Shown one piece after another: positions 35,008 to 60,968 of a stretch of DNA of 64,000 nucleotides; the stretch's first letter is position 1; the number at the start of each line of letters is the position of its first letter. The notes under the pieces are model-generated. The model was not told the origin of the DNA. It saw nothing but the letters and a program-made list of their open reading frames with translations, and searched no databases. The position numbers and the translations under genes are program-made. Source of the stretch: Candidatus Dadabacteria bacterium. GTDB lineage: Bacteria; Desulfobacterota_D; UBA1144; Nemesobacterales; Nemesobacteraceae. Location of the stretch: contig VXNX01000009.1 in NCBI GenBank assembly GCA_009840385.1, positions 101,585-165,584 of the forward strand. The letters run 5' to 3'.

Positions 35008-35420
35008 TATCCGTGCAAAACGCGGCGGAGCGGGGCCACGGGGGAATTGCAACGCAGAGCAACCGCGTTGTCCTTGCAGTTGAGAATCGGGCCTCAAATG
35101 CTCAAAGCATTACGCCAGACCCAAAGCGGAAACCCGGATTCGAGGAAGCAGTTTAACCGCAAGGGAAAAAATATCACTACTGGCGCAAGACTATTTTAGT
35201 GCCTCTTTTCTCGAGGATTATCTGGAACAACTCTGATGAAAAACACGCCACTGTCCGCTGATCCATATGATGCGGAGGAATTTATTTAGGCCCTTGGAGT
35301 GGTGCCGCGTAAATTTTTAGCCTGATTCCGGTTTATTTTTATCTGTTCAGATAAACCCCCGTGGGATGGAAAAGACAGTTGCCGTAAATCTGGCGGAAGT
35401 CGGATTTGTCTGGAGGTCAG

Positions 35421-37091
35421 TCACTCTTCGGTAGAATCCCATTCACGAGAAGCCCATTCCAAAATCTTACGCTCTCTAAGTCTAATGGCTTTAATTGACC
35501 AGCGTTTATTTGATGCCACTTCAACTGCGATGAGAAGTCCAGTTTCTCTATATTTTTCAAATTTCTTTTTTGAGGGCATGCCGCCCAACCTAGAATTTAG
35601 ACTTGGTGGCAGGAGCAGAAGGTTTCCCAATCTATGTTTAACATGATCGGGTGCGGTATTTTGTGGATAGATATGCTCAATTGATTTAGAGGGGCTTACT
35701 GACCAAATTTTCTCCCACTGTTCATTTTTAAATTTGTTGCCCTTTTGCTTCGTTAGATACTCTTCATATCTGAACATAAAATATCTCAATTCCTCTTGCC
35801 ATCCCTCATAACAGTTTGCGTTTCGCAAGGCTTTTACCGCATCTTCAATTGGGAAATCATTTCCAATTGACCGAATTTCGTTGAATATTTCATCTACAGT
35901 AAGGTTTTCCCGGACTATTTTCCTTGCAAGCCTAGCATACTCACCCACGCGTGTTCGCGCATCGTGGCGAAGCATACCGTAAATTCTAAACGAAACCTTT
36001 TCCCAGATAGACAATAAGCGGGCTTGATCTTTTTTTGTCACTCTTTCGCAGAGGTGTATTGCAACAGCCAGCAAACGTGCCTGTGAAATTCGGGTAACAG
36101 CATTCAGTCGGTGTTTTGATACAACGGCATCACATGCTTTTGTTACTTGTAGAAGCCACCGGGCAACATCCCTTATCTCCCTTGCATCATGTGCTGCTGA
36201 TCGAAATTCGTCCACGGCAGCTTGCTCACTCATTGGACGATTTTGTGGCGTTGACGCACGAAGTGTTGCAGCAAAGCGCAGTGCCTCCGTACTCAGCCCT
36301 TGAGTTAGACCAACTGTGGAGTAAATATCACTCCAAATAATACGTAAATCTTTTATTAATTGTTCGCTATCTGCATCTTCCAGCGTATATGCAGCACCCA
36401 TAAGGATACTCTTGAGACGATCCAGCCAAGACACCTCCATTCCGCGACTGTTGAGTACTTCAAAAACTGTATAAACAGTTTTCTCATCTGATATTTCGTG
36501 CAAAATAAAAGATAGTCGATTTTTGATGTGTCCAACTAAGAGAGTCAATTCATGGCCATTTTCTACCCAATCTTTAACGAACTTTTTACAGTCTGCTATT
36601 GCTGCGAGAAGTTCTCGGTCCGCTAGCGTTTTGCCTTTTTCAGGATCTTCACTTTTACCGTAACGAATGAAATCTGCAAAATGATGGCTTGTATCATGGT
36701 TTGTTTGAAGTAGAAGGAGATTGTCACCACCGACTTTAACCAATAGCTCTTTAAGTTCTCGAGCGGTTAATTCTTCACCGGCATCCTCGCAATTGAGCGC
36801 CAGTCTTATTGCGTTTAATAAAATGATCAAGGTCGTCAGACGTTGTTGACCATCCACTATATCCAGTTTATGGAACTCATGAGTACCAAGTGTTATCTTC
36901 TTCTTCCGAAGACAAACAATAACTGCCATAAAATGGCTCGCATTCTCACCTTGAAGATTATTTATATCTTCAAACAGGTCTTTTCGTTCACGCGAAGTCC
37001 AACTGTATGCACGCTGATAATCTGGGATATTAAATAAACGCCCGTTGAGTAGATTTGCGAAGGTAAGATGCAGAGGTTGAATGTCGATCAT
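35421..37091 (-). CDS. DUF262 (ParB-like) plus DUF1524 (His-Me finger) protein, GmrSD-like type IV restriction endonuclease family
   Basis: N-terminal IPDYQRAYSW and VDGQQRLTTL DUF262 motifs. C-terminal nuclease-like region. 556 aa. Confidence 0.65.
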   Translation of the reverse strand: MIDIQPLHLTFANLLNGRLFNIPDYQRAYSWTSRERKDLFEDINNLQGENASHFMAVIVCLRKKKITLGTHEFHKLDIVDGQQRLTTLIILLNAIRLALNCEDAGEELTARELKELLVKVGGDNLLLLQTNHDTSHHFADFIRYGKSEDPEKGKTLADRELLAAIADCKKFVKDWVENGHELTLLVGHIKNRLSFILHEISDEKTVYTVFEVLNSRGMEVSWLDRLKSILMGAAYTLEDADSEQLIKDLRIIWSDIYSTVGLTQGLSTEALRFAATLRASTPQNRPMSEQAAVDEFRSAAHDAREIRDVARWLLQVTKACDAVVSKHRLNAVTRISQARLLAVAIHLCERVTKKDQARLLSIWEKVSFRIYGMLRHDARTRVGEYARLARKIVRENLTVDEIFNEIRSIGNDFPIEDAVKALRNANCYEGWQEELRYFMFRYEEYLTKQKGNKFKNEQWEKIWSVSPSKSIEHIYPQNTAPDHVKHRLGNLLLLPPSLNSRLGGMPSKKKFEKYRETGLLIAVEVASNKRWSIKAIRLRERKILEWASREWDSTEE

Positions 37092-37162
37092 TGGGAATTC
37101 TTGGAACTGTCTTTTTTGACGTTAAAGTTAGAAAAGTACTGGATTTATATACTCAACTCAAT

Positions 37163-38074
37163 TTAATATGAAAATTCAGAACAGATAGCTTCCCAGATGT
37201 ATTCTGCTGTCTCTTGCGGAGACATGAAATCTACATTATTTGTAAAAGCTAGCATTCCCATGGAATTTAATTTAAGCTCTCCTTCGTGTTCTTCCACAGA
37301 AATTATTTCGTTTGTTGATTTATCTTCACTCACATCTATATGGGTCCCATGTAGCATCCAAATTTCATCTCCCCACATTTGACCGTTTATCCATATTTTC
37401 AGGCTAGTCAATATATTTCCTTCATTGTAAAGAGTGAACAGCACTTTCCTTGTTGTTATCTTTTCGACTTCAAATTCAAAGGTCGGGTATTCATTTTTAG
37501 TTTCACGCACAAATTCACCAATGGCGAAGACTATATGCTCAAAAGATTCCCTAAGAAACTTTTTCTTTTCTTGATCGGAAAACGATCTCCTAAGCTTGGG
37601 TATATAGGACTTTGAGAAATTTGATTTGTTCAGCTTTCGCCCCTCATCTTGTTTCTTTCTTCCGATCTTCTGGAGGAAAAGGTCCACAATCTTTTCAGGT
37701 TCCGTACTTTCTGCAGAAACATATACGATAGTGTTAGGAAGTCCTGGAACATCGCCGGAAAAACCATCAAGACGAACTGGAAGTATATATGCTTCTCCTT
37801 TTTCTTGAATGCTTTTCTCCATAGCGTTTCTAAGCTCCCATACAGTCCACACTTTCTCTAGATAATAATCTGAAAGAATTATTATGCAGTACCGACTATC
37901 AGTGAAATATATTTCTCTCAATTTAACCGATAGATCTTCTCCCCATAGATTAGCGGGATTGAATTCATCATAAAAAACTTCGACTTTTTCCGCTTGTAAT
38001 GCGGTGGCTATAGCTTCAGCGAAATTTCTATTTTCACCCGCAAATGATAAGGCGACATCATATTTATATGTCAT
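37163..38074 (-). CDS. TIR-domain protein (ThsB-like)
   Basis: YDVALSFAGENRNFAEAIATALQAEKVEVFYD...IIILSDYYLEKVWTVWELRN matches the bacterial TIR_2 pattern, including the putative catalytic Glu. About 170 aa C-terminal extension of unknown function. Confidence 0.7.
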   Translation of the reverse strand: MTYKYDVALSFAGENRNFAEAIATALQAEKVEVFYDEFNPANLWGEDLSVKLREIYFTDSRYCIIILSDYYLEKVWTVWELRNAMEKSIQEKGEAYILPVRLDGFSGDVPGLPNTIVYVSAESTEPEKIVDLFLQKIGRKKQDEGRKLNKSNFSKSYIPKLRRSFSDQEKKKFLRESFEHIVFAIGEFVRETKNEYPTFEFEVEKITTRKVLFTLYNEGNILTSLKIWINGQMWGDEIWMLHGTHIDVSEDKSTNEIISVEEHEGELKLNSMGMLAFTNNVDFMSPQETAEYIWEAICSEFSY

Positions 38075-38179
38075 ACATAGTAATCCTTAATCATCTAGAG
38101 TAAGAAGACAAAATATAGGGAACGAAATTGGTAGGGTCGCATTCTTTAGCACATCCATATAATCCTCTTACAAACCTTA

Positions 38180-39031
38180 TTATGTTGTCGATTGTCTCAC
38201 AGCTCCAAGAGTGTGATTGACCGCGAGACGTAGATTGTCTTCTACACGAACTATAGTATCCATGCCATTATCTTCACCCAAACGACGAACAGTAATTGTG
38301 ATGTTAACAGACTCCCCATGAAATTCATCTACAAAAACTTGCTCTCTCCGTAAAAGTTGAGATGAGGTGATTAAGAATGAAATTTCAGGTTCGTCATCTA
38401 AAAAGAGATTCATGGAATTGGATGCAAAAACAAACCGGTCTATATCGGTTGGCAATTCCGAGAAAAGCGTCTGCATGTTTCCAGTTGGCCAATAAATCAC
38501 TTGAATCAGTACTACATACCGAAAACTTTTTCCATGATTGACAAAAGTCCATTCAATTCCCAGTTCATCACCATAACTAGCGACTTCAATGGCCCAATCA
38601 GTGTAAAAATTGGAGATTTCAGCTCTTGCTTGCGCTGGATTCGAGATTCGCGACAAAGACCGTAGCAGAAAGTTGAAACTTCCATCTATATCCTCACGAA
38701 AATCAATACAAGATTTTTCCTTGAGAAGTAAAGGAATTTCACAATCATCAAGTATGATGGGGATTAGTAAAACCGACTTTTCTTCTAATTCTCGTATCAA
38801 TCCGGCACGCAACTCCTTTTTGCACCATTCAGATTCAACAGAGTCCTTAGATAGCAAAACTAGTATCGCGTTCGCATCTCCCAAAGCTTCTTCGATCTTG
38901 GAGATCAAAGAGTCACCCGCATTGAGTTCCCATTTATCGATCCAAACATTCTGCTTTGCTTGAACTAGATTAAGTGCCAAATTCTCAGCGAAATCTCTGT
39001 CGGCCTTGTTGTAACTAATGAATACTGGCAA
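38180..39031 (-). CDS. TIR-domain protein (ThsB-like), second copy
   Basis: MPVFISYNKADRDFAENLALNL...AILVLLSKDSVESEWCKKEL TIR pattern. About 150 aa C-terminal region of unknown function. Confidence 0.7.
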   Translation of the reverse strand: MPVFISYNKADRDFAENLALNLVQAKQNVWIDKWELNAGDSLISKIEEALGDANAILVLLSKDSVESEWCKKELRAGLIRELEEKSVLLIPIILDDCEIPLLLKEKSCIDFREDIDGSFNFLLRSLSRISNPAQARAEISNFYTDWAIEVASYGDELGIEWTFVNHGKSFRYVVLIQVIYWPTGNMQTLFSELPTDIDRFVFASNSMNLFLDDEPEISFLITSSQLLRREQVFVDEFHGESVNITITVRRLGEDNGMDTIVRVEDNLRLAVNHTLGAVRQSTT

Positions 39032-39458
39032 TGTATCTCCTCCAATTTCTAAGTTGGCCCCACACTACTTCACTGAGGGGTAGAAAAATTAGTGTATCTT
39101 TCAAGATACTGTATAATATAAGTATTCTCTATAGTACAATACTACGGTAAGAAGAATTCACCAATGGGTGAAAACATTGAATACTTCTTAAAAAACATCT
39201 CTCGAAGGCCTAGTTGGATAATGGTGGAATTGGTGAACTTACTTGCCATGGGTCAGGTTTACAACGGGCTTCCAGTCGCACAGTAAAAGTAGATTGGAGA
39301 TGGTTAAGAAGAACTTAGGGACCAAAGATCCAAATCTCGGCTTTCTGAATCACCCAGCATATCGGTCCTTACAAAAAACTTCATTGAGATGGTTGAAGTG
39401 AAATTGTCTAATAACTGAATTATAGTCCTATTAACATTCCTCAATTAAAACCACGAAA

Positions 39459-39893
39459 ATGACGCCGGAAGAATATCTCAAGGATCGAGTTGAACAGCAA
39501 ATCAATTGGTACGACTGCAAAAGTACCCTTAACAAAAGATACTTTTACCTTTTACAAATCATTGTTTTGGTAATGTCCGCGGCTGTGCCAGTGGTTTCAA
39601 TACTATCCATAGTTTTTGAAAGCATATGGATACGGCTTGCCATAGGAATATTGGGTGCACTCGCAACTATAGCAACAGGGATTATTTCAATTTGCCAGTT
39701 TCGTAAGAATTGGATTGAATACAGGACAACGGCAGAATCGCTGAAGTGTGAAAAATACATGTTTAGAACTAAAACTGGTTTCTATGCAAAAAGTGGAACT
39801 TTTCCAGTGTTCGTAGAACGAATTGAAGCATTGATCAGCAAAGAGCACAAAAACTGGGAACAACATCTGAGAATCCAGAAACAAGCCGACTAG
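39459..39893 (+). CDS. SLATT-like two-TM protein (DUF4231-like predicted membrane effector)
   Basis: 144 aa. N-terminal WYDCKSTLNKRYFYLLQ followed by two hydrophobic helices and a short C-terminal tail, the SLATT/DUF4231 layout. First gene of the plus-strand operon. Confidence 0.5.
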   Translation: MTPEEYLKDRVEQQINWYDCKSTLNKRYFYLLQIIVLVMSAAVPVVSILSIVFESIWIRLAIGILGALATIATGIISICQFRKNWIEYRTTAESLKCEKYMFRTKTGFYAKSGTFPVFVERIEALISKEHKNWEQHLRIQKQAD

Positions 39894-39928
39894 AAAACAT
39901 TATCTCGCTGGCAAACAAGAGAATAACA

Positions 39929-40900
39929 ATGCCAGAAAATCGAAAAACTGAACTACGCGTTGCAGAAACGGTGCTGCCGTTGCCGTGCTTCTTCCCGTCA
40001 GTTTCAAGTGTAGTAAAAACCGACATGACACCAACTGATCATATAGAGCTTCTCGGTTTTTCCGCACACTCGCTCTTTCTTATTTCGGCATATGATGTTG
40101 CGAACTGCACTTACCAAGACCGAAAGCGCATAAAAACCGCACTTGATAAGAGCAAAAAACACGGGGCAGTAATACTGATGGATAGCGGTAATTACGAGGG
40201 GTTTTGGAAAGTAGACAAAACTTGGAAGGCAGATAATTTCCATGAAGTCGTAAAATCCTGTAAAAATGATCTTTGTTTTTGTTACGACAATCACAATCCC
40301 CCTGATTCCATAGAGACAATTGCGGAGGATGTGATTGCAAGAGTTATTCAAGATCAAAATCACACCAATGGGATCGTGTGTCCGATAATACACGGGGAAA
40401 CCACACTTCTGCCTGGTTCAGCCAAAAGGGTGGCAGAACAACTTTCTCCATTGCTTTTGGCGATTCCTGAACGAGAATTAGGAAAAGGAATAATTGGACG
40501 GATTCGGACTATAAAAAAAATACGAAAATCCCTAAACGATCTGGAAACTTATTGCCCCCTGCATTTGCTAGGTACGGGAGACCCCGTCTCAATCATTGCT
40601 TATTCAATGGTCGGGGCAGACAGTTTTGACGGATTGGAGTGGTGCAAAAGCGTTATAGATCACGAAACAGGTAATCAGCACGATTTTCAACATTGGGACT
40701 TTTTCCGGCATCAAACAAATCGAGAACTGCCGGAGAATTTTCCCCACAAGCAATCAGTCTTGATGCACAACTTGAATTTCTACAGACAGTTCATGAAGGA
40801 ACTACATGACGCTGTAAAGAATGAAGATACAGAAACGTTTCTGCGACGGTATACAACCGAAAACCAGGCTTCTTTATTGGTTGATGCAATCAAACAATAA
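39929..40900 (+). CDS. tRNA-guanine transglycosylase-fold protein, DpdA-like (predicted 7-deazaguanine DNA transglycosylase)
   Basis: ILMDSGNYEGFW (equivalent of the DSGGFQ substrate pocket) and PLHLLGTGDPVSIIAYSMVGADSFDG (equivalent of the LxGxGxP...D.FD segment carrying the catalytic Asp). No CxCxxC zinc site. Confidence 0.65.
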   Translation: MPENRKTELRVAETVLPLPCFFPSVSSVVKTDMTPTDHIELLGFSAHSLFLISAYDVANCTYQDRKRIKTALDKSKKHGAVILMDSGNYEGFWKVDKTWKADNFHEVVKSCKNDLCFCYDNHNPPDSIETIAEDVIARVIQDQNHTNGIVCPIIHGETTLLPGSAKRVAEQLSPLLLAIPERELGKGIIGRIRTIKKIRKSLNDLETYCPLHLLGTGDPVSIIAYSMVGADSFDGLEWCKSVIDHETGNQHDFQHWDFFRHQTNRELPENFPHKQSVLMHNLNFYRQFMKELHDAVKNEDTETFLRRYTTENQASLLVDAIKQ

Positions 40901-41604
40901 TGGGTAAAACGTTCGCAAACCAACTTCCGCTTTCGGTTATTAAAAACGCGATTCTAGATATTTGTATCGTCCTAGAAGAGCAAGAACTAATATTCACCTC
41001 TTCACCAACTTGCAGTGAAGACAATCTTTGGAGAGAACTTGTGTCCTGCATTCTGGGGAGCCGGGTCAGGTTTGAAACCGCTTGTGCTGCGGTAGAGCGG
41101 CTAGACGACATGTGTTTGTTATGCCACTCACGCCGCACATCAAACTTCGACCAATATGAAACTGACATACTGTCAACTCTTTCGGGAAAGTATCCGTTTT
41201 ATAAGCTTCGAGCAAATCAGATACGGCAGGCGGCGGAATCACTTTATGGTTCCGGGGGTTCAATTAAGAGTCTCTTGGATAATACAGTCGATTTCCGTGA
41301 GATGCGGCAATACCTGATATCTGAAATCCCAGGATTGGGACCAAAGCAGTCCAGCTTGTTTCTTCGCAATATAGGATACGCCGACAGCGTTGCTGTTTTG
41401 GATGTTCATGTTCTGACCTATATGAATTGGGTTGGTTTGACAACGGTTCTTGAGAAGTCAATTCCGACTATACGCAAATACGAAACGCTTGAGAACTCTT
41501 TCGTTGAACATTCCCTATCTTTAGGATATTCTCCAGAGCAGTTTGATCTTGCCGTGTGGTTAGTTATGAAGGTAGCAAGGAAGGAATATAAAACATGGGG
41601 ATAG
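40900..41604 (+). CDS. HhH-GPD superfamily DNA glycosylase, Ogg2/AGOG-like
   Basis: ISEIPGLGPKQSSLFLRNIGYADSVAVLDVHVL helix-hairpin-helix Gly/Pro loop plus a downstream Asp, typical of archaeal-type 8-oxoguanine glycosylases. Start overlaps the upstream stop. Confidence 0.55.
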   Translation: MGKTFANQLPLSVIKNAILDICIVLEEQELIFTSSPTCSEDNLWRELVSCILGSRVRFETACAAVERLDDMCLLCHSRRTSNFDQYETDILSTLSGKYPFYKLRANQIRQAAESLYGSGGSIKSLLDNTVDFREMRQYLISEIPGLGPKQSSLFLRNIGYADSVAVLDVHVLTYMNWVGLTTVLEKSIPTIRKYETLENSFVEHSLSLGYSPEQFDLAVWLVMKVARKEYKTWG

Positions 41605-42179
41605 TGACTCTTGTATCCGGAGGTGTCGACTCCATGCTCATGAGCCTTTTTGCTCACGAAGAGGGTGTCGAGTTATTTCCCCTTTTCGTTGATTATGGGC
41701 AGCTTGGAGTATCCAAAGAATGGGAGGCATGCAGGCGACTACACGAACAGTTTGGTCTGCCAGAGGTCACTTATATGGACCTCTCAGGTTTCGGAGAAAT
41801 TATTCCGAGCGGTATTACAGACTCCAGATTGAGAATAAACGAAGATGCTTTCCTACCTGGCCGCAACCTTCTTTTTGTGCTGGCCGGAGCAGCCTATGCC
41901 TTAAAGGTCCAAGCCGATAGCGTGGCAATAGGTCTGCTTTATCAATCGGACCATATTTTCCCAGATCAAGACGAAAAATTCATTGAAAGGTGTGAAGAAG
42001 TGATTGAAACAGCCATGGGAAAACATATTAATGTCATCGCTCCGTTAATAGAGTTTTCAAAAACAGACGTGCTGACTATGGCCCGTGCACGCGGACTAGA
42101 AAACACATATTCCTGTCACGCAGGAGGCGATAGACCCTGCGGGGTATGTATAGCGTGTGTTGAGATTGACAATGCCTAG
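41595..42179 (+). CDS. queC: 7-cyano-7-deazaguanine (preQ0) synthase
   Basis: VTLVSGGVDSM PP-loop and C-terminal zinc ligands CHAGGDRPCGVCIAC, 194 aa. Confidence 0.8.
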   Translation: MGIVTLVSGGVDSMLMSLFAHEEGVELFPLFVDYGQLGVSKEWEACRRLHEQFGLPEVTYMDLSGFGEIIPSGITDSRLRINEDAFLPGRNLLFVLAGAAYALKVQADSVAIGLLYQSDHIFPDQDEKFIERCEEVIETAMGKHINVIAPLIEFSKTDVLTMARARGLENTYSCHAGGDRPCGVCIACVEIDNA

Positions 42180-42193
42180 ACAAAGGAGGAATC

Positions 42194-42697
42194 ATGGGTG
42201 GTAAATACTCAGGTGGTGGCAGTCTAAGCCCAGAACACCTAGAAGAACTTGAGCAGAGTGCCAAGAAATCCATAGAAAAAGGGGTATCTGGAAAGGTAAA
42301 TGCGTTCATAAGCTTTGATTCTGAAGACCTCAATGAAGTTAACTTGCTGCGCGGTCAAGCCAAAAACGAGAATACCGATATCGAATTCAATGATTGGTCG
42401 GTTAAAGTACCCTTTAACAGCGAAAGAGCTGAGTACATTCGACGTCGTATCCGGGAACGTATCAGGCAGTGTTCAGTCACAATTGTTTATGTTTCCGAAA
42501 AGACAGCCAGCAGCAAGTGGGTTGATTGGGAAATAAGAGAGAGCCTTGCTATGGGTAAAGGAGTTGTTGCCATGCACAAAGGTTCTACACCACCCAGACA
42601 ACTTCCAAAAGCGATTAAGGAAAATAATATTCCCGTTGTGCCTTGGAACCAACGGGAATTGGCAAAAGCTATCAAAAAACAGTCGGAAAACCGATGA
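42194..42697 (+). CDS. TIR-like domain protein (DUF1863/ThsB-like)
   Basis: KVNAFISFDSEDLNEVNLLRGQ...CSVTIVYVSEKTASSKWVDWEIRESL fits the DUF1863 TIR-like pattern. Confidence 0.5.
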   Translation: MGGKYSGGGSLSPEHLEELEQSAKKSIEKGVSGKVNAFISFDSEDLNEVNLLRGQAKNENTDIEFNDWSVKVPFNSERAEYIRRRIRERIRQCSVTIVYVSEKTASSKWVDWEIRESLAMGKGVVAMHKGSTPPRQLPKAIKENNIPVVPWNQRELAKAIKKQSENR

Positions 42698-42716
42698 GTG
42701 AAACCCAAAGGTAAAT

Positions 42717-43460: not shown

Positions 43461-43497
43461 CTTTGGTATATCGCTCTTAACGGATAGCAGTATTTTT

Positions 43498-43902
43498 ATG
43501 GTTACCTTACAGGAGCAAAGCCTAGATTGGGCTCTTGCGCATGTGGAAACATTCGGAGACACGGATGTTTTTCCAATACCCTTTGAGTACGAAGCAATTC
43601 GTCATGATTGGGAGGCATTAAAATTTCAACTTGCCGGACAGGACCTCTTAAAATGGACAGTGCGGCCACTTCGAATCTTGCCGGCACCGAAAGCTCGATA
43701 CGGGTTTCGAATAATAACCCAACTTGACCCTTTAGATTTCCTATTGTTTGCTGCAACTATACGAGAACTCTGTACCTCGATAGAGTCCAAGCGTATCTCT
43801 CCATCCGTAGTGTGTTCGTACAGAGTGGCACCAACGGAGAATGGCCAACTTTTTGACCAAAACTACTGGCAAATTCTCATTTGGGAAGATGATCAAATAT
43901 AG
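43498..43902 (+). CDS. hypothetical protein resembling the N-terminal (motif 0-2) region of a reverse transcriptase, possibly truncated
   Basis: RPLRILPAPKARYGFRIITQLDPLDFLLFAATI resembles the RT IPKxxGxxRPI...D(R)..Q segment. Only 134 aa. Ends about 15 nt from the 3' end of the convergent PHP-ATPase gene. Confidence 0.25.
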   Translation: MVTLQEQSLDWALAHVETFGDTDVFPIPFEYEAIRHDWEALKFQLAGQDLLKWTVRPLRILPAPKARYGFRIITQLDPLDFLLFAATIRELCTSIESKRISPSVVCSYRVAPTENGQLFDQNYWQILIWEDDQI

Positions 43903-43916
43903 AGGGCATAATTTTT

Positions 43917-50419: not shown

Positions 50420-50445
50420 TTAATTCCTCCTGATTTTTCTTCTTA

Positions 50446-54600: not shown

Positions 54601-55063
54601 GCAAGTCGGAATAAAGGCATAGTTGCAGAATAGTTCCCGCTCTAGTTTCGCGTGCAAGCTTGGTATCAATTGCCTCATATGACCAATCGCCGATGATACC
54701 CGGCTTTTCGACACGACGAAGAATGTCGGCACGACCACCCCAACCATCACATGAAAGTGCACCTTGCACGATCACAGCGACACCTTGTCTCATCGCCAAA
54801 AGCGTTTCTTCCACCGCTTCTTCGGTAACATACGAACCGTCAATGCGCACGATTCCTAGGCCAGATTGCTCCAGATGGGCGACATAATTTTGTTCATGAA
54901 TGGAACCACGCTTCAACAGGACCTGGAGTAGTGGGTCCCAGACAGTTGGTTTGGCGAGTACCCCTTCGGCCACAGCACGGTCGAGGGTGGATAGATAACG
55001 ACAATTCAAATAACCTACGAGGTCGCTGGCGGTTAGGTCAAATTTGCTGCCAGTTTTTTTCAT
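51653..55063 (-). CDS. RecB-family (TM0106-like) nuclease fused to a superfamily-1 DNA helicase (AAA_11/AAA_12, Dna2/Upf1-like)
   Basis: N-terminal half has a Cys cluster CDICRWRENC...C and IFFDLEGDP, as in TM0106-type RecB-like nucleases. C-terminal half has Walker [20 protein letters not shown] and IGDPQQLDQP SF1 motifs. 1136 aa. Confidence 0.65.
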   Translation of the reverse strand: MKKTGSKFDLTASDLVGYLNCRYLSTLDRAVAEGVLAKPTVWDPLLQVLLKRGSIHEQNYVAHLEQSGLGIVRIDGSYVTEEAVEETLLAMRQGVAVIVQGALSCDGWGGRADILRRVEKPGIIGDWSYEAIDTKLARETRAGTILQLCLYSDLLTKAQGVTPDYMYVVVPWSDFEPRKYRFADYAAYFRKVQRALREFLISQEAEKTYPDPKEYCDICRWRENCDKHRRDDDHLCLVAGISKLQIKELSQHNITTVQDLALLPLPPPWEPERGSANFYDRVREQARIQVEARESGKCKFELLPVKHGFGLSCLPEPSPGDIFFDLEGDPFVGEHGLEYLFGYVFNDESADTVYKNIWAFSRAEERQTFENFVDFVMERWEQYPDLHIYHYAPYETSALKRLMGRYASREEEIDQLLRAGVFIDLYQVVRHSIRASVESYSIKDLEPFYGFKRNTQLPDANAALANLQANLELDDIPSITEETKATVLVYNKDDCASVAGLRDWLETQRGQLLADGADIPRPEPGDGSPTERITDWLMKINPLIEQLTAGIPTDPEKRDKEQQGLWVLANIIDWHRREDKAVWWEYFRLCDLSAEELMDERTGLSGLTFVNEVGGTERAPIHRYKFPPQENEFRGGENLCNCEDNKIVAKVAAISFEDYTIDIKKRQDSKATHPHAVFAHDHVSTQVLADSLVRLAEHVVSDGLRGEGKYRAARDLLLKETPRIGGQKLHREGEATVDAAVRLCGHLEGGILAIQGPPGTGKTFTGAQMICELVHQGKTVGITANSHKVIRNLIDAAIAAAEESGVDLRCCHKAAEIEDEQPRLCFTRKNEELFDMLGSSVNVGGGTAWLWARPEASEIIDVLFVDEAAQMSLANVLAVSQAANTVVLIGDPQQLDQPMQGSHPDGTNVSALDHVLAGKQTIRPEQGLFLEETWRLHPDICNYTSELFYEGKLKAKKDLKQQVVHASGPINGAGLYYLPVEHEGNQNCSPEEALAIEALVKRLLNSDATWVDRDGSKRPVTLDNILIITPYNAQVFEIQRLLAGARVGTVDKFQGQEAPIAIYSTATSSHKDAPRGMEFLYSLNRLNVATSRAKCLSIMVSSPQVFEAECRTPRQIQLANAFCRYLELAEEIKLVP

Positions 55064-55117
55064 AGCTGAAGCACACTGTCTCTATACAATAGCTAAAGAT
55101 ATAACTAGGACGCCACA

Positions 55118-55951
55118 CTAGGTATCTACTAAGATTGTAGCATTGAACCACTCACCCTTCCCGTTATCTGAGGGGATGTGAGGAGCAATGTCGGCAACAC
55201 TGCGAGTATGCAGCTTAGGCGGATCTTTCGCCATATCCCAAAGATGAAATAGATATGCTGTATCCGCCTTTTCAGCCTGCTTCCATTCATTGCGGGTTAC
55301 CCAAAACCTGAGGGGAGAATTAATCGTAGATTTGACTTCAATCATACGACTATCAATGGTACCGTGGTCAGACTTTTCATACGAGAGGACATCATAACCC
55401 GCGAAATTGTCATCGAGTCCTGGCCATTCAACTTCTCTCTCAATCCCCTCACTTTTTAGCCTTATCCGCTCATATTCAATTGTGAGTAACTCAGCAACTC
55501 TAGCTTGCTTCATTTTTTCAAGGTCTGAAATTAGCTTCGCGTGTCCTGTAATGTCGTCCCACCAAGTCACAACATCAGCGGATGGAGGGTCTGCCATCAA
55601 ACCAGCGGCTACAAAAACATCCTGATCATTTGTATCAAGTCCACGCACAAAGCGTTTACGTCCAACTCGCATAGTTTTGGACCAGATTGGTTGGTGCTTG
55701 ATAAGAATCGCTTTAATGCATTCTTGATAAAAGGCTTTTCCATCTGTAGGGCATTCGTCATCAACAAGTGTGTTAAGATAAGAGGATGCCTCTAAATCAA
55801 AGCTGGCACCATCCACCTCAAGACTTTCGATTAGAGGTATGATATCCAAAGTCTTAAGTTCGGGCTGGCGAGCAGAATACTTCCTGATTAACCGTAGTCC
55901 TTCTAATGCAGAAAGAGAAAACATTCGCTCGATCGGAATGAGCGCTGTCAT
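55118..55951 (-). CDS. DUF3883-like (restriction-endonuclease-fold) domain protein
   Basis: C-terminal GYDVLSYEKSDHGTIDSRMIEVKST resembles the DUF3883 / PD-(D/E)xK-like GYD..S...IEVK motif. Start overlaps the SNF2 gene stop by 4 nt. Confidence 0.4.
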   Translation of the reverse strand: MTALIPIERMFSLSALEGLRLIRKYSARQPELKTLDIIPLIESLEVDGASFDLEASSYLNTLVDDECPTDGKAFYQECIKAILIKHQPIWSKTMRVGRKRFVRGLDTNDQDVFVAAGLMADPPSADVVTWWDDITGHAKLISDLEKMKQARVAELLTIEYERIRLKSEGIEREVEWPGLDDNFAGYDVLSYEKSDHGTIDSRMIEVKSTINSPLRFWVTRNEWKQAEKADTAYLFHLWDMAKDPPKLHTRSVADIAPHIPSDNGKGEWFNATILVDT

Positions 55952-57858
55952 GCTTCCTCCATTGGAACATCTCCTGCTCTGTTTTCCATTTCGGCAATTA
56001 AGTCTATGATGTCTTGGAGTTCAACGTCATAATCTATAGGATCATCGGCACTTTCTTCATCCAACGCAATTTCGTGTAGATCTGGATCATCCAAGAGTTG
56101 TTGCATATTGCGGATCTTTTCCACCAACCTACGGCTAACCGAATAATCAATGCTTCCAACTCTTGGAGGTGCTATTGATCTATATACAAAGATATTAGTT
56201 TCCTGATTCGGGGGAAGTCCTAGTCGATGAATCCTGTCAATTGATTGAAGATAGTGTGTGGAAACATAGCTTCGGTCAGCGTATAAAGCATTATGGCAGA
56301 CGGTGTGTAGACTTATTCCTTCACCGGCGGCTGCTGGATTGGCCACAAGAACGTAACAATTATCATCTTCGTGAAATCGCTTGATTCGCCCTTCTCTGGT
56401 TTCGATTTCGTTTGTTGAACCAGATGGAACGCCTCCATGGATAAAAACCGGGTTCAAATCGGCAAGAGAGGAAACGAAATTGTAAATTGTATTGGTAAAT
56501 ATAGTCCAAATGACACATTTTTCACCCGCATTTGCTAATACACGCGCGTCATCCATCACAGCCTTCATCTTGTTTGAATAACCTTCATCCATAACTTGTT
56601 CTATTACTGCAGAATTAATTGATATATAGTCATTTGCCATAGCGGTCAGCGCAAGCACTGGGTTCACCGAGAGTTGTAGTAACCGCATAACGGAGCGTCG
56701 AGCTTTTAGAAACTCCCCCTTAGCCATTCTTCGGCTCAAATTATTGTAGTAGCTTCGAACAAACTCATTGCGAACAATGGAATAGAGTGCAAGTTGTCCT
56801 TCACTCATCGAAACATCGACAAATTTGCGGTTTGCTTTTGGTAGACCCAGCTCTTTTTTTGTCGTTCTGACGTAGAGGTTGCCTAAAACAGTTTTTGGAG
56901 ACTTACCGTGTACGACCTCTAAACCGAGACCGTGTCCAGGCCATAAAAAATCAAGTTGCGACTCTATGTCCGAGGCACTCTGAGGCATAGGCGTACCTGT
57001 CAAAATATCCCGCCTTACTGGCAAAGCTGAAATACTCAAAAGGAATGCTCCTCTTTGGGATTCCCAACCGGCCTTCATTCGATGTGACTCATCCAGAACC
57101 AGATGGGTAGGGGTGGAAGCAATGTGACAAGTTATTATATCTTGCTGTCTAATCAAAAGATCATATGAAATAATAAATCGTGTCGCACCCGATAATAATT
57201 TTTGGCGGTTATCTAGCTCGGACCCATCTAGAAGTGTGAATTGTTCACTTCCATTGTCTGAAGCATCCTCAGTCATACACTCGGAGACAATATCGAGCCA
57301 TACTTGAGTTGCAGACTTTGGTGCAACAACTATCAAATGTTGCCCTGTATGACGCGCCAATAGGTGAAGCGCAAAGGTTACTGTGGTCTTTCCTGCACCA
57401 GGAACTGAAAAGTTTGCACCATTTGCGAGTGAAAGCAGGTGTTGGAGATCACGAAGTTGAAAAGGCTTAAGTCTACGCTTTGTAAAACCTGCTTGAACAA
57501 GTAGGTTTTCAATTTCTTGCTCAGTGATGGTTGAAGACAGACTTTTCCTTTGCTCTTGTGTTGCCTTCACCTGGTTGGCAAACCTCTTCAACTCTTCGGC
57601 AGCCTTACCCTCAGGCCGAAATCGGAAATTTAACGAACGTTGTGTTGCTCGGCTTCCGAATTCGCGAACTAGACTGAGTGTATTAGGCCAAGAAAGTTTA
57701 ATCCGGTTACCAGTATCGATACAATCCACCCCCTTGGAGCGGATTGAGAGTTTAATACGAGACCAGACAGGTGTTTGGGTATCTTCTTCGGAAATAGCAA
57801 GCGTTCCTGTGTAATCATCATTTAGGAGTATCCGGATAGCCGTTGATATATCATTCAT
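55948..57858 (-). CDS. SNF2-family (SF2) helicase/ATPase
   Basis: Walker A PGAGKTTVT, DEAH-like VLDESHRMK, ILTGTPMPQS (SNF2 motif III), and motif VI QSIDRIHRLGL. 636 aa. Confidence 0.7.
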   Translation of the reverse strand: MNDISTAIRILLNDDYTGTLAISEEDTQTPVWSRIKLSIRSKGVDCIDTGNRIKLSWPNTLSLVREFGSRATQRSLNFRFRPEGKAAEELKRFANQVKATQEQRKSLSSTITEQEIENLLVQAGFTKRRLKPFQLRDLQHLLSLANGANFSVPGAGKTTVTFALHLLARHTGQHLIVVAPKSATQVWLDIVSECMTEDASDNGSEQFTLLDGSELDNRQKLLSGATRFIISYDLLIRQQDIITCHIASTPTHLVLDESHRMKAGWESQRGAFLLSISALPVRRDILTGTPMPQSASDIESQLDFLWPGHGLGLEVVHGKSPKTVLGNLYVRTTKKELGLPKANRKFVDVSMSEGQLALYSIVRNEFVRSYYNNLSRRMAKGEFLKARRSVMRLLQLSVNPVLALTAMANDYISINSAVIEQVMDEGYSNKMKAVMDDARVLANAGEKCVIWTIFTNTIYNFVSSLADLNPVFIHGGVPSGSTNEIETREGRIKRFHEDDNCYVLVANPAAAGEGISLHTVCHNALYADRSYVSTHYLQSIDRIHRLGLPPNQETNIFVYRSIAPPRVGSIDYSVSRRLVEKIRNMQQLLDDPDLHEIALDEESADDPIDYDVELQDIIDLIAEMENRAGDVPMEEA

Positions 57859-57907
57859 ATTATTCCCTTACCCTTTTTAATCTTGGCCAATTCCTCGTTT
57901 CTATCGT

Positions 57908-59209
57908 TTACTGCCGTTTTTTTATACTTTCCTCCACTCTCTCTAAAATAGTTCTGATTGACTCAATCTGCTTCAACATTGCCCTTAATGTGTCATCACC
58001 GGCAAGAGTAATATCAATCCCGGCCAGTTTTGTGTGTGCCTGAGACAGTGCTTTCAGAGCTGCTTTCTCTGATTGCTGGTCTTTGTCAAGTTCAATGGCA
58101 GTTTCACAGGATTCTATTAAGGCAGATACAGCTTCTTCCTTTGTAGATTCGTTACGAAGTGCTTCTATTATTGAACTGTAGTTCAAATTGTCTTCTTCAT
58201 TTTCAATATCAATCGCAAAATCATCTTCAACATCCTCGTCTAAATCTGCGGAATTATTGTCAATGGCTAGCTGCGCTTGCAACAATTCAAGCACTTTCGG
58301 CGCCAACTTGCCAAAGGAAGGATTCAAGTTGTAGACACGCCCTGATACTCGATCTCTGTTTTCAAAAAGTGAGAAAGCAATAGCGCGGCTTGCATTTTGA
58401 AGGCTTGGGTCCTTTTTAGCAATACTTTTTGGAATATCTCCGAAAATCTGCTGCCCTTCCGCCGCAACAAGATCATACTGACCGGGTTTCTTGACCCATT
58501 CATTTAGATATAGATCCGCCTCTTCCAGCGCCTGCAGGACCTTTTCGACATCTGCCTTGCTACGCCTCAGGCGATCAGCAACTTCCTTTGTTGTCCGTCC
58601 TTTGTTGACTTGTCTCCGGACCAATCTCGCATCGCCAATCCAGTCATAATCGAGTTTAGTTTCCTGCTTAGCTTGAAGATCGGCTTCAATATCATCTACT
58701 TCATCTCTTGTAGTATCCGGGGGAAGAACCGCACATCGAACATGACTGAAGCGTTCGTTAACTGAACCATCATTATTACGATAGAGTTCACGCATTGCAC
58801 TCAGACGACGATTCCCGTTAACCACTATGCCAGTATAGGTAATCAAAATTGTATCCCGTTGTTCTTCTTGCCTTAGTACATCGATAATCGGCACAACGGA
58901 GGATGTACCTTGTTTTGCAAGTTTCAGAAGAATTTGGTGCTGTCTCTGTTGAGCCGTTGAAGATTCTTGACCTTTCTCAAAGAAGTTTTTGGGTAGATCC
59001 CCAGTAGCAATTTCGCTTTGCTGTGCACTGAAGGTTCGACAGTTCTCCATCCGATAAACCAGCACATCGATTGGTAATGAGATCACCTTCAAAGAGAAGG
59101 GGCCACCCCGAAAGTCGTATATTTTCTCCTGCTCATTCGAGTTCTCCCAGCGTTGTTTAATAAGGACTTCTCGTTCTGACCTAGGTCGTACTCTCACTTG
59201 ATAGCTCAA
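57908..59209 (-). CDS. ParB/sulfiredoxin N-terminal-domain protein (DpdB/DndB-like) with acidic coiled C-terminus
   Basis: ISLPIDVLVYRMENCR and IVVNGNRRLSAMREL match ParB N-terminal box motifs. 433 aa. Confidence 0.5.
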   Translation of the reverse strand: MSYQVRVRPRSEREVLIKQRWENSNEQEKIYDFRGGPFSLKVISLPIDVLVYRMENCRTFSAQQSEIATGDLPKNFFEKGQESSTAQQRQHQILLKLAKQGTSSVVPIIDVLRQEEQRDTILITYTGIVVNGNRRLSAMRELYRNNDGSVNERFSHVRCAVLPPDTTRDEVDDIEADLQAKQETKLDYDWIGDARLVRRQVNKGRTTKEVADRLRRSKADVEKVLQALEEADLYLNEWVKKPGQYDLVAAEGQQIFGDIPKSIAKKDPSLQNASRAIAFSLFENRDRVSGRVYNLNPSFGKLAPKVLELLQAQLAIDNNSADLDEDVEDDFAIDIENEEDNLNYSSIIEALRNESTKEEAVSALIESCETAIELDKDQQSEKAALKALSQAHTKLAGIDITLAGDDTLRAMLKQIESIRTILERVEESIKKRQ

Positions 59210-59221
59210 TAGGTTCCTCCT

Positions 59222-59686
59222 TTACTCAAAAGCAATAATAAAAATAGGAACAGTTATGACACGATCAAACAGTTCTAATTCGCGAATAACTCTCTCAGCG
59301 TTAGCAATGTTATCGCCGATTTCACGCGCGGCTTCTTTAGTAGGAAGAGCTAAAGCAGCTGCCTGTATGCGCCCGTTTTGGAAAAGAAACTGTAATTTTA
59401 ATAAGTCATATGGTGCACGGCTCATGTTTCCTGTCTGAAGCTGAAAAGCAAGACCTTCTTTCTCAGCCGTAACCTCGAGACCATAATCCTGATTAAGTTT
59501 CACTCCCAATGCCCAACCTTCATTGAGAAACTCGGTTTCAACGTGTTCACGAATATGCGGTGTGCACCCTCTGGTAATATTGATTGTAGAAGCTTCAAAT
59601 ATACCAGTCAGCCACTTTCTAAGCCCACGCTGTTCCCACTCCACACTCGCATTATAATGTTTGCCATAGGTAAATGCTAGTTTCAT
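59222..59686 (-). CDS. hypothetical small protein (154 aa) between methyltransferase and ParB-like genes; candidate nuclease/specificity component
   Basis: No confident family assignment. Overlaps the MTase stop by 4 nt and lies 13 nt from the ParB-like gene, so it is operonic. Confidence 0.3.
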   Translation of the reverse strand: MKLAFTYGKHYNASVEWEQRGLRKWLTGIFEASTINITRGCTPHIREHVETEFLNEGWALGVKLNQDYGLEVTAEKEGLAFQLQTGNMSRAPYDLLKLQFLFQNGRIQAAALALPTKEAAREIGDNIANAERVIRELELFDRVITVPIFIIAFE

Positions 59687-60618
59687 GAGTTTCTTTTTGA
59701 ATTTGGATCGTAAACTGGCTCATTCATTGGTCGGGTACGGAGCTTCCCTTTACGTAGATCACGCACGCGACGGCGTGCAATATTGATATAGTTTTTGTCA
59801 AGGTCACAGCCGTATGCACAGCGACCATGCTTCAGTGCTGCAATCGCACTCGATCCAACTCCAAGATAAGGATCAAGGACATTTTGACCCTCATTGGTCA
59901 AGGCCAAAACCAACCGCTCAACCAAGCCAACGGGAAACTGACAAGGGTGTTCAGTTTTTTCTACATGGTTGGACTTCACATTAGGAATGTCCCAAACATC
60001 GGATGGGTTTTTTCCTAAAGGATTACTCGATACACTGCCTTTTTTTGGACCTTTAAAATATTTTTTGTTGGGATACTTGGATGGAACACGAATATCGTCA
60101 AGATTGAATATGTAATCATCAGATTTTGTGAACCAAAGTATAGTCTCATGACGCCCAGAGAATCTCTTCTGGCAGTGTAGACCGTGCCCGAAGGTCCATA
60201 CAATCCTGTTTCTTAGCTTCAAGCCGTGATTTCGGAAAATTGGATAGAGAAGAATGTCGAGGGGGAATATCTCACCACCATCGACATAGTTGCCAACTTG
60301 CCAACAGATTGATCCGTTGGGAGCTAGAACACGTGTGGCTTCCGCAATACAAGCGGCCTGTTCCTTGATGTAAACATCCTGAGATTTTCGAACCTCGTAC
60401 TCTTTCCCGATATTGTAAGGGGGAGAGGTTACAATAAGGGTCATTGATTCGTCATCCAAACGACGCATAAATTTGAGATTATCTTCGCATGAAATTTGGA
60501 CTTTTATATCTCGCTTTAGTCGCCGAGTTTTAGGGTCCTTCGTATCATTAGATGCCGCTCGTCTGGATCGTACTGATTCCAATTCCTTCTCCCGACACGT
60601 ACTACTAAATCTTCCCAA
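59683..60618 (-). CDS. DNA methyltransferase, beta-class amino-MTase (SPPY motif; N4-cytosine or N6-adenine)
   Basis: Motif IV TSPPYN near the N-terminus (preceded by CEDNLKFMRRLDDESMTLIV) and motif I LDPYLGVGSSAIAA near the C-terminus, the circularly permuted beta-class order. The listed start is a TTG, so the true start is uncertain. Confidence 0.75.
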   Translation of the reverse strand: MGRFSSTCREKELESVRSRRAASNDTKDPKTRRLKRDIKVQISCEDNLKFMRRLDDESMTLIVTSPPYNIGKEYEVRKSQDVYIKEQAACIAEATRVLAPNGSICWQVGNYVDGGEIFPLDILLYPIFRNHGLKLRNRIVWTFGHGLHCQKRFSGRHETILWFTKSDDYIFNLDDIRVPSKYPNKKYFKGPKKGSVSSNPLGKNPSDVWDIPNVKSNHVEKTEHPCQFPVGLVERLVLALTNEGQNVLDPYLGVGSSAIAALKHGRCAYGCDLDKNYINIARRRVRDLRKGKLRTRPMNEPVYDPNSKRNS

Positions 60619-60628
60619 GATTAATAAG

Positions 60629-60656
60629 ATTCTACCAGCTTTACACAGCGTATGAA
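60629..60656 (-). promoter_or_regulatory. candidate sigma-70-type promoter for the island-2 operon (minus strand: TTCATA, 16-nt spacer, TAGAAT)
   Basis: Reverse complement of 60651-60656 is TTCATA and of 60629-60634 is TAGAAT, with a 16-nt spacer. This sits immediately 5' of the MTase ORF, which would imply a very short or leaderless 5' UTR if the TTG start is real. Confidence 0.2.
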
Positions 60657-60968
60657 ATTAAAGCTGAGTTCTAAGAAAGAACACGTGTTACCACAAATAC
60701 TCTGCTTAGATATCCTCGCATATACGCTGATAACGTCTTAAATCTTTCGCAAATTAAAAAGGAAGGTGGCATTTCTTCATATATCCGGTGAGAGTCTAAA
60801 ACTCCGGCAACCTCCAAATAGTTTTCTACCTGAATAAATTGTCCGGCATCCCAAGGAAGCTCGTTGAGATCATTTTTCATCAGATTCTTGTTTTCTTTTA
60901 CGACGATAACTTTTATACACTGCTCTGATGAAAAAAGCCCTAGCTTTTACAGCAGCAACTTACTGAAA

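Follow-up and report, generated by a model that had tools for sequence, protein, structure and literature searches.

A variable defence-gene hotspot around dnaK-rpoH in a Candidatus Dadabacteria genome, with a probable Cap9-Cap10-Cap11 set on a Thoeris-type TIR-SLATT operon

Islands on both sides of dnaK and rpoH

The window analysed here is a 64,000-nucleotide stretch of a Candidatus Dadabacteria genome (all coordinates are positions within it), in which two islands lie on either side of dnaK and an rpoH-like gene, the first carrying an operon of TGT-, OGG- and QueC-like genes between a SLATT gene and a TIR gene and the second carrying a five-gene methyltransferase cassette. The gene map was built from an open reading frame (ORF) listing together with Pfam, PADLOC and NCBIfam scans. 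Four core genes, all on the minus strand, frame the islands: aceE (32338-35097), dnaK (48500-50419; HSP70, 1.8e-257), the rpoH-like gene for a sigma-32-like factor (50446-51306; sigma-70 regions 1.2, 2 and 4) and sucC (60969-62135). The sigma-32-like gene encodes the motif QRKLFQRI, which is close to the RpoH box.

Alignment of the window to its relatives breaks off precisely at two stop codons, those of dnaK and sucC, and on the opposite sides some 140-155 bp before the starts of rpoH and aceE. These homology breakpoints place the limits of island 1, an insert reaching from the promoter region of aceE to the stop codon of dnaK, at approximately 35253-48499, and those of island 2, which reaches from the stop codon of sucC to the promoter region of rpoH, at approximately 51445-60966. 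Guanine-cytosine (GC) content is 0.36-0.46 across 35-48 kb (island 1) and 0.41-0.51 across 51-61 kb (island 2), with the flanking core genes above both at 0.53-0.57. The initial annotation had described two defence islands flanking dnaK-rpoH, and both the homology breaks and the base composition (0.36-0.51 over the two islands) bear this out; the TGT-like, QueC-like, SNF2 helicase and methyltransferase genes that it had listed are likewise all present at the positions it gave. It had also seen no integrase, transposase or tRNA at the junctions, and the scans agree. No tRNA and no Rfam family was found in the whole window, domain scans found no integrase or transposase domain in island ORFs of at least 100 aa, and direct or inverted repeats at the island edges amounted to short, chance-level matches only.

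In a scan with DnaK using one genome per species, about 80 loci were retrieved and compared with the window proteins, and relatives were compared within 10-kb flanks (L-numbers below are labels for related loci). dnaK and rpoH are adjacent in approximately 50 Dadabacteria-type loci, and the order sucC-rpoH-dnaK is also common to more distant Dadabacteria. Junctions were counted in a close set of 27 Dadabacteria genomes with DnaK 85-98% identical, in which the sucC-rpoH junction is empty (132-205 bp) in five genomes (L022, L024, L025, L029 and L030), the dnaK-aceE junction is empty (160-274 bp) in five (L022, L025, L028, L029 and L030), and inserts are present at each junction in the other 22. 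Both junctions are empty in four of the 27 (L022, L025, L029 and L030), which show an uninterrupted orf-sucD-sucC-rpoH-dnaK-aceE-aceF-lpd, the spacers measuring 132-274 bp. Where DnaK is 93-98% identical, both spacers are usually enlarged and of lower GC, and the inserts, 0.7 kb to over 10 kb in length, differ in content. A total of 111 ORFs from the relatives' inserts match many PADLOC families (Azaca, Zorya, CBASS and Septu-type), including ZacC four times (E 0), ZorD four times (3.5e-137), CBASS cyclases four times (5.9e-120), PtuA and DrmD. The region had been proposed to be variable, and with five of the 27 relatives empty at each junction and the others holding different defence genes, rather than the same genes throughout, that proposal is upheld.

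The closest view of how content differs comes from L174, whose DNA is 86-90% identical to the window. This locus carries, in order, the 283-aa TIR, SLATT, TGT, OGG and QueC genes, the 167-aa TIR gene, a 245-aa homologue of a window protein without family match and an intact 523-aa reverse transcriptase gene, followed by dnaK and rpoH. Beyond rpoH (12452-14738 of L174), UDG, MazG_C and Nmad2 genes, a module of nucleotide-modification type, are found instead of the window's island 2. On the other side of dnaK, homology between the window and L174 ends at window position 43861, and in the alignment the window block 43862-48488 (4.6 kb, containing TrlF and AlbA_2 genes), which is missing from L174, stands in for the 3' 1.28 kb of the L174 reverse transcriptase gene. 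A second gene remnant lies in the spacer between the island 2 methyltransferase gene and sucC, where 60701-60925 on the minus strand is the 3' end of a DUF3326 gene (tblastn, residues 372-443 of 457-aa proteins, 64% identity); intact DUF3326 proteins (457 aa; DUF3326, 4.4e-95) are encoded in the islands of L009 and L015.

These comparisons establish the flanks of dnaK-rpoH as a real, two-sided and variable hotspot of defence genes without integrase, transposase or tRNA. The ancestral order would be sucD-sucC-rpoH-dnaK-aceE-aceF, with both spacers beside rpoH-dnaK filled by unrelated, independently acquired defence modules. This documents an integrase-free chromosomal defence hotspot centred on dnaK-rpoH in an uncultured lineage of which little is known, with gene-by-gene replacement visible between near relatives; a literature search on Dadabacteria defence systems found nothing specific.

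The TIR-SLATT operon and the five-gene cassette

The operon of island 1 runs on the plus strand and begins with a 144-aa SLATT (DUF4231) protein with two transmembrane helices, a predicted effector (39459-39893; NCBIfam SLATT_1, 7.6e-38; Pfam DUF4231, 2.9e-23). It is followed by a Cap10-like protein of the TGT fold (39929-40900), which matches the PADLOC TGT model of the cyclic oligonucleotide-based antiphage signalling system (CBASS) over its full length (3e-28). In PADLOC at E <= 10 this protein returned only that model and a weak match to PDC-M62A (0.0047), NCBIfam gave only weak tRNA-TGT fragments, and a sequence search of the PDB gave Cap10 (9ntn) as the sole convincing match. An AlphaFold model of the protein (predicted local distance difference test score, pLDDT, 84.6) placed 9ntn_A and 9ntn_B at Foldseek ranks 1-2 (E 1e-13), above tRNA transglycosylases. 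Residues D85, S86, H212 and D234, the counterparts of Cap10 D73, S74, H226 and D248, do not vary among 22 homologues, so that the Asp/Ser pair with which Cap10 reads the nucleobase and its catalytic His/Asp pair are both retained. Only one Cys is present in the C-terminal half, which, like that reported for Cap10, lacks the CxCxxC zinc motif.

Next in the operon is a Cap11-like glycosylase of the OGG/HhH-GPD type (40900-41604; Pfam Ogg-HhH, 3.5e-25), in which a GLGPKQ hairpin precedes an Asp (VLDVHV). The Cap9-like ATP-dependent ligase of the QueC family (41595-42179) has the CBASS QueC model PDLC00911 as its only convincing PADLOC match (1.1e-28), has Cap9 (9nto_B, 1.9e-14) as its best PDB match, and carries the motifs LVSGGVDS (residues 6-13), YGQx5E (34-42), RN and CxxCxxC when read against a published list of Cap9/QueC motifs (PMC13329287). 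The last gene (42194-42697) encodes a 167-aa ThsB-type TIR protein, the predicted signal synthase and deazaguanylation substrate (ThsB_TIR PF08937, 3.9e-24), with a 37-aa N-terminal extension beginning MGGKYSGGGS. Neither the island ORFs of the window nor the annotated related contexts contained a match to a CD-NTase, cyclase or SMODS domain, and for this reason the operon is not CBASS despite its predicted accessory chemistry of the type IV CBASS kind. A promoter and terminator scan of the operon found no excess of sites over shuffled sequence.

Conservation of this arrangement was followed through 1909 homologues of the Cap10-like protein and through a metagenome scan that added 80 further loci to four annotated contexts. 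The four annotated contexts contain SLATT, an optional extra TIR of 132 aa, TGT, OGG, QueC and TIR genes, and no cyclase. The order Cap10-Cap11-Cap9-TIR is found in 51 of 51 loci with enough downstream sequence, down to 38% Cap10 identity, every related locus long enough to show it has the Cap11-like gene between Cap10 and Cap9, and a SLATT-like membrane protein is encoded upstream of the Cap genes, mostly adjacent, in 54 of the 64 loci with upstream sequence. Among 47 distinct TIR proteins encoded downstream of Cap9, M1, G2 and G3 are invariant (47/47) and positions 4-7 are mostly Gly, and the Glu of a W-x-x-W-E motif, E113, is 100% conserved and presumably the catalytic Glu of a ThsB-type TIR. 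Extra TIR genes in the same loci encode proteins without the Gly tail.

Some loci depart from this pattern upstream or in their surroundings. Cap10-Cap11-Cap9-TIR without an upstream SLATT gene was seen in L127 (2642-5968), L132 (14-2686) and L166 (879-2210), and the loci without SLATT instead carry a gene for a WD40 protein of 1108 aa, for a DUF499 ATPase or for a TPR-S/MAP3K_TRAF_bd protein; these proteins may serve as effectors or sensors in place of SLATT, or may be neighbours with no connection to the module. The complete module, SLATT-TIR-Cap10-Cap11-Cap9-TIR, is found within a type I restriction locus in an Armatimonadetes genome and in others, with hsdM/hsdS on one side and hsdR on the other (L085, 504-13215; L086 and L087, 2313-13366).

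Island 2 contains the cassette, whose five genes are on the minus strand. Gene 1 (59683-60618) encodes a DNA methyltransferase (N6_N4_Mtase, 5.2e-51; PADLOC MTase_II, 1.4e-80) with the motif IVTSPPYNIG; an SPPY motif is typical of N4-cytosine methyltransferases. The gene caller gives this protein 261 aa and its homologues have 276-297 aa, and the true start is probably downstream of 60618. Gene 2 (59222-59686) encodes a 154-aa protein of the BglII/BamHI fold whose Pfam match is just below threshold (Endonuc-BglII, 3.3e-5, 24.1 bits against a cut-off of 26), and its homologues carry precomputed BglII and BamHI matches. In a profile alignment, the invariant AFQLQTGN of this family aligns with E111-F-E113 of BamHI and E128-V-Q130 of BstYI, and no conserved Asp was found upstream of it in the family. 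On this weak alignment the canonical catalytic residues of the 154-aa protein seem to have been lost, and it is possibly a DNA-recognition subunit.

Gene 3 (57908-59209) encodes a 433-aa protein with a sub-threshold ParB signal (Pfam ddrB-ParB, E 0.058), a VVNGNRRL motif and a helix-turn-helix (HTH)-like segment after the ParB-like part. The same ddrB-ParB family is matched by 12 of 18 homologues (best E 0.0078) and one homologue is named ParB/Sulfiredoxin by UniRef; the protein has 686 homologues, of which the best 120 are mostly 60-70% identical, and no match in PADLOC or NCBIfam. The ParB-like protein of the initial annotation is therefore kept as an ORF with a ParB signal, and its identity as ParB stays below threshold. 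Gene 4 (55948-57858) encodes a 636-aa ATPase of the SNF2 family (SNF2-rel_dom, 7.5e-12; Helicase_C, 5.6e-5) with PADLOC matches to ZorD (2.8e-16), DpdE (4.4e-9) and HmaA (3.3e-7), and gene 5 (55118-55951), which overlaps it by 4 bp, encodes a 277-aa PD-(D/E)XK nuclease of the NOV_C (DUF3883) family (NOV_C, 1.5e-15; GYDV...IEVK). The five genes are found in the same order and at near-identical sizes, with differing flanks, in 10 of 10 loci, that is, in the window and in nine others, four of them on IMG/VR viral contigs and the rest in Rhodovulum, a Brucella-like genome, Gemmatimonadetes and two further bacteria. The five genes are transferred between phyla as one unit.

Interpretation and rival explanations

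In type IV CBASS, which consists of a CD-NTase and an effector with Cap9, Cap10 and in some cases Cap11 (PDB 9ntn, 9nto), Cap9 attaches 7-amido-7-deazaguanine to the CD-NTase at Gly2, the end so modified is bound by Cap10, and the cyclase N-terminus M(G/S)G(G/S)GG is the NDG attachment site (Wassarman et al. 2025, 10.1101/2025.04.06.647259). The Gly-rich N-terminal motif of the TIR proteins equals this acceptor site. With type IV CBASS the window operon shares Cap9, Cap10 and Cap11 homologues with conserved catalytic or binding residues, a membrane effector and a Gly-rich acceptor on the signal synthase, but a TIR protein takes the place of the CD-NTase. Thoeris operons with cap9, cap10 and cap11 have been noted from genomes (Yirmiya et al. 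2025 preprint, 10.64898/2025.12.03.692087, Fig. 6G), and in the same work type VII Thoeris is a TIR protein with a SLATT effector, ThsH, and a cyclic ADP-ribose signal, and AlphaFold 3 models place ThsB on Cap9 and Cap10. The window shares with these systems a ThsB-type TIR whose N-terminal tail is suited to Cap9 and Cap10, a SLATT effector and QueC-, TGT- and OGG-like genes in one operon, without a cyclase, and is thus a member of a configuration so far described from genome analysis alone. It differs in having a short, single-SLATT protein (144 aa, against approximately 295-320 aa in most relatives), a degenerate Gly tail and two further, divergently transcribed TIR genes.

We consider it highly probable that the TGT- and QueC-like genes are Cap10 and Cap9, forming with Cap11 an accessory set on a Thoeris-type TIR-SLATT system rather than a DNA-modification arm, and that this system occupies one side of a two-sided hotspot whose island 2 holds a separate cassette. 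By analogy with CBASS, after removal of Met1, Cap9 would use ATP to ligate 7-carboxy-7-deazaguanine to the alpha-amine of TIR Gly2, and Cap10 would bind the modified N-terminus, either keeping the TIR inactive or, on infection, transferring it to some target, a step that Cap11 may undo. The activated TIR would then turn NAD+ into a signal derived from ADP-ribose, and this signal would make SLATT permeabilise the membrane, so that infection is aborted; the two extra neighbouring TIR genes may feed the same SLATT effector. Protein deazaguanylation has so far been shown for CBASS cyclases and QatB only, and the comparative data, with an operon order kept across phyla, are sequence-level support for its extension to TIR immune enzymes.

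Several observations weigh against this explanation. TIR deazaguanylation, the nature of the signal and activity against phage are predictions by analogy, and even in type IV CBASS the role of Cap10 after the modification step is uncertain. The window Cap9 has FPDQ where canonical QueC has YPDC, and the N-terminus of the window TIR leaves the consensus after Gly3. The 7-carboxy-7-deazaguanine biosynthesis genes queD and queE were absent among the 10 largest ORFs sampled outside the islands, all of which are housekeeping genes (FtsH, GlmM, MetK, AhcY, RecN-like and others). In island 2, the PDB similarity of the 154-aa protein to BglII and BamHI is weak (E 0.16-0.26), which makes the idea of an inactive reader tentative, and the AlphaFold model of the 433-aa protein, made with 18 homologues, is unusable for fold search (pLDDT 56.7); since PDB profile searches with this protein also gave only weak HTH matches, the ParB assignment stays sub-threshold.

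Two rival explanations concern the TGT- and QueC-like genes. The initial annotation had read these genes as the modification arm of a Dpd-type system and likened the ParB-like and SNF2 proteins to DpdB and DpdJ, so that 7-deazaguanine modification and restriction of DNA would be split over the islands, with DpdA and QueC in island 1 and a DpdB-like ParB and DpdE- or DpdJ-like helicases in island 2. What the window has in common with Dpd (dpdA-dpdK) is a TGT paralogue and a QueC paralogue with the chemistry of the QueC pathway, a weakly ParB-like protein and two helicases in island 2, and weak PADLOC matches of these helicases to DpdJ (6e-9) and DpdE (4e-9). However, the helicases match Dpd through generic helicase motifs, their stronger matches being to MkoA (3e-43) and ZorD (3e-16), and in NCBIfam the DpdE score is 15 bits, with the cut-off at 500. 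The PADLOC library, whose DpdE and DpdJ models were returned for other proteins here, gave no match to any Dpd model, DpdA, DpdB and DpdC included, for the TGT-, QueC- and ParB-like proteins even at E <= 10, and NCBIfam likewise had nothing of Dpd type for these proteins at E <= 0.01. By sequence, structure and context, the TGT and QueC paralogues are Cap10 and Cap9. No DpdB or DpdC gene adjoins a dpdA here: the ParB-like gene lies 17 kb away in a separately conserved cassette, and no DpdC-like gene was found. The ParB-like and SNF2 genes travel in that fixed cassette with their own methyltransferase, in genomes without TGT or QueC genes nearby, and L174 combines the Cap/TIR operon with a wholly different island 2. 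Unlike dpd genes, those of the window lie apart, in two modules that are each mobile on their own, and the predicted substrate is a protein N-terminus, not DNA. A split Dpd system is accordingly exceedingly improbable, and on these sequence data we reject it in favour of two independent, separately mobile systems and several stand-alone modules, whose mechanisms are predicted from homology and context. The alternative also raised at first, that island 2 is an independent methyltransferase-based system, held: the methyltransferase, ParB-like and SNF2 genes are three of the five that are intact in all cassette loci. TGT and QueC paralogues in defence islands are thus not necessarily Dpd genes for DNA modification, which corrects a tempting mis-annotation. 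There is also a small chance that the TGT/OGG/QueC trio modifies nucleic acid by base exchange in DNA or tRNA and merely adjoins a TIR-SLATT Thoeris pair, as nucleic acids are the usual substrates of OGG and of enzymes with the TGT fold, Cap10 retains the catalytic Asp/His pair of transglycosylases, its final target is uncertain even in CBASS, and some loci already have an upstream SLATT and TIR pair in which the TIR lacks the Gly tail. Opposed to this are the 51/51 linkage to a TIR carrying the exact Gly-rich acceptor motif, the absence of the zinc motif that the window protein shares with Cap10, the protein-binding Cap10 as closest solved structure, and the published models that put ThsB on both Cap9 and Cap10.

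The other two rivals concern island 2 and the origin of the islands. The methyltransferase and the 154-aa protein could form an ordinary type II restriction-modification pair, with the ParB-like, SNF2 and NOV_C genes as unrelated neighbours; the two genes overlap by 4 bp, the methyltransferase matches MTase_II as given above and the 154-aa protein matches PADLOC REase_II (9.8e-5). Compared with the BglII/BamHI family of type II systems, a cognate methyltransferase is present, but the catalytic Asp and E-x-(E/Q) of the endonuclease are not found in what is a weak alignment: Gln stands at both positions aligned with BamHI E111 and E113, no upstream Asp is conserved, and the protein is approximately 50-70 residues shorter than BamHI, BstYI or BglII. 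With all five genes together and in one order in every cassette locus, although the flanks all differ, we regard such a simple pair as quite improbable. Unlikely, though somewhat less so, is the explanation that the islands are decayed integrated mobile elements, a prophage or an integrase-less integrative element, rather than a hotspot filled by recombination through its flanks. Elsewhere the five-gene cassette occurs on IMG/VR viral contigs and beside recombinases or insertion sequence elements, and the duplicated 5' fragment of rpoH in L021 could be the target-site duplication that an integrating element yields. The window itself, however, has no integrase, transposase, tRNA or boundary repeats, and content swaps module by module among close relatives, with breakpoints inside genes, as in the reverse transcriptase and DUF3326 remnants. 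The L021 fragment (7045-7560) is a partial rpoH copy, containing the upstream region and the first approximately 106 codons at 84% identity, approximately 2 kb upstream of the real rpoH, and it may be what integration or recombination at the hotspot has left behind.

Under the preferred explanation of two separate systems, the cassette would probably act as an ATP-dependent system resembling restriction-modification, in which the degenerate endonuclease fold would read the methylation site and the SNF2 motor and NOV_C nuclease would cut. A literature search for a system of methyltransferase, ParB, SNF2 and DUF3883 proteins returned only Hma/HmaA and BREX-related systems, which differ. In the Hma system, HmaA is a SNF2 helicase fused to a NOV_C/DUF3883 nuclease (PMC11232893), and the cassette likewise combines a SNF2 ATPase, a NOV_C nuclease and a methyltransferase. 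In contrast to Hma, SNF2 and NOV_C are encoded by separate, overlapping genes with a PADLOC match to HmaA of only 3.3e-7, and HmaB (a DUF1156 methyltransferase) and HmaC (a DUF499 ATPase) were not found in island 2, where the partners are the SPPY methyltransferase, the degenerate BglII/BamHI-fold protein and the ParB-like protein. The conserved five-gene methyltransferase cassette matches no named system in the sources searched and is not named in current defence catalogues. A bolder proposal, which we hold only tentatively and would sooner doubt than accept, is that the cassette is a previously unnamed, horizontally mobile defence system in which an inactivated type II endonuclease serves as methylation-sensitive reader for a split, HmaA-like motor and nuclease, and that, separately, the three TIR proteins of island 1 converge on one SLATT, only one of them being gated by N-terminal deazaguanylation.

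Further genes in the islands and their surroundings

Besides the operon and the cassette, the islands hold a GmrSD protein, a TrlF/TrlG-like pair, a RecB-like nuclease-helicase and a decayed reverse transcriptase system, all of which are stand-alone modules. The GmrSD-family type IV restriction enzyme (35421-37091, minus strand) has an N-terminal DUF262 and a C-terminal DUF1524 nuclease domain in one protein (Pfam GmrSD_N, 2.4e-30, and GmrSD_C, 4.2e-17; PADLOC HEC-06, 9e-54). Between it and the SLATT operon are the two additional TIR genes, also on the minus strand. The first (37163-38074) encodes a 303-aa, ThsB-like protein with an N-terminal TIR (TIR_2, 1.4e-16) and a C-terminal domain, and PADLOC ThsB PDLC00420 matches its C-terminal part. 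An 87% identical homologue of this protein is encoded directly after dnaK in L007 (12455-14153), beside an '8xMP' octameric membrane protein (PF24838), which suggests that TIR proteins of the 303-aa type pair with different membrane effectors in different genomes. The second (38180-39031) encodes a 283-aa protein (TIR_2, 1.9e-29; ThsB_TIR, 1.5e-6), is divergent from the SLATT operon and has the same position in L174.

Downstream of the operon on the plus strand, 42717-43460 encodes a 247-aa protein without a family match in Pfam, PADLOC or NCBIfam scans. The ideas that it is a cyclase in disguise or that it belongs to the Cap module were rejected: it matches no family, is absent beside the module in L084-L087 and travels with the reverse transcriptase in L174, where its homologue precedes the intact 523-aa gene. 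The protein is likely the partner of the neighbouring reverse transcriptase system and not part of the Cap/TIR module. In Yersinia enterocolitica (L173, 3244-5717), a homologue of the 247-aa protein follows a 585-aa protein without a Pfam match, and phage genes for terminase, portal and replication proteins lie in the same region; this locus appears to be a form of that two-gene system carried by a phage. Of the reverse transcriptase itself, the window retains the 5' remnant of a DRT8-like gene, a pseudogene fragment with a 134-aa ORF (43498-43902, plus strand; PADLOC Drt8, 8e-38, model positions 2-119 of 493). It is taken as a remnant because the TrlF/AlbA_2 block replaces the rest of the gene relative to L174, and a full-length DRT8 reverse transcriptase was not found in the window.

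Within that block, the minus-strand gene at 43917-46925 encodes a 1002-aa TrlF-family protein with PHP and ABC/SMC-like ATPase domains, a relative of Ppl (NCBIfam TrlF_fam_ATP NF045780, 1.9e-196, 656 bits against a cut-off of 350), and the one at 47097-48410 encodes a 437-aa, TrlG-like protein with an AlbA_2/Schlafen domain (Pfam SLFN_AlbA_2 PF04326, 5e-12). In the Photorhabdus TRL operon (trlR-trlF-trlG, 'temperature restriction locus'), TrlF is paired with the AlbA_2 protein TrlG (10.1101/2020.06.02.129163). The window shares the adjoining TrlF-family PHP/ATPase and AlbA_2-domain genes, but no small regulator resembling trlR was seen and the HATPase_c_4 domain of TrlG was not detected in the window.

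In island 2, a candidate stand-alone defence gene next to rpoH (51653-55063, minus strand) encodes a 1136-aa protein combining a TM0106-type RecB-like nuclease, an RNase H-like domain and an SF1 helicase (TIGR03491, 1.5e-78). PADLOC matched its C-terminal helicase to MkoA (2.7e-43) and the protein to DpdJ at only 6e-9. A 91% identical copy adjoins rpoH in L010 without the cassette, and the gene is missing from all nine other cassette loci; it was therefore rejected as a cassette member.

The window sequence is identical to that of a metagenome scaffold, and its proteins carry Candidatus Dadabacteria annotations. Proteins identical to the TGT-like and 247-aa proteins are nevertheless labelled 'Candidatus Poribacteria bacterium' at NCBI, where a contig of 4.3 kb encodes them (F4Z98_12340 and F4Z98_12320). 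For the ParB-like protein, encoded on a 215-kb contig, the label is Dadabacteria, and the dnaK neighbourhood of the window matches Dadabacteria genomes; the small Poribacteria-labelled contig was probably mis-binned. Outside the islands, a 555-aa ORF without a Pfam family lies amid housekeeping genes at 24490-26157 (minus strand), and a 1-kb patch with a GC content of 0.43 lies at 28001-29000, immediately upstream of the pyruvate dehydrogenase genes.

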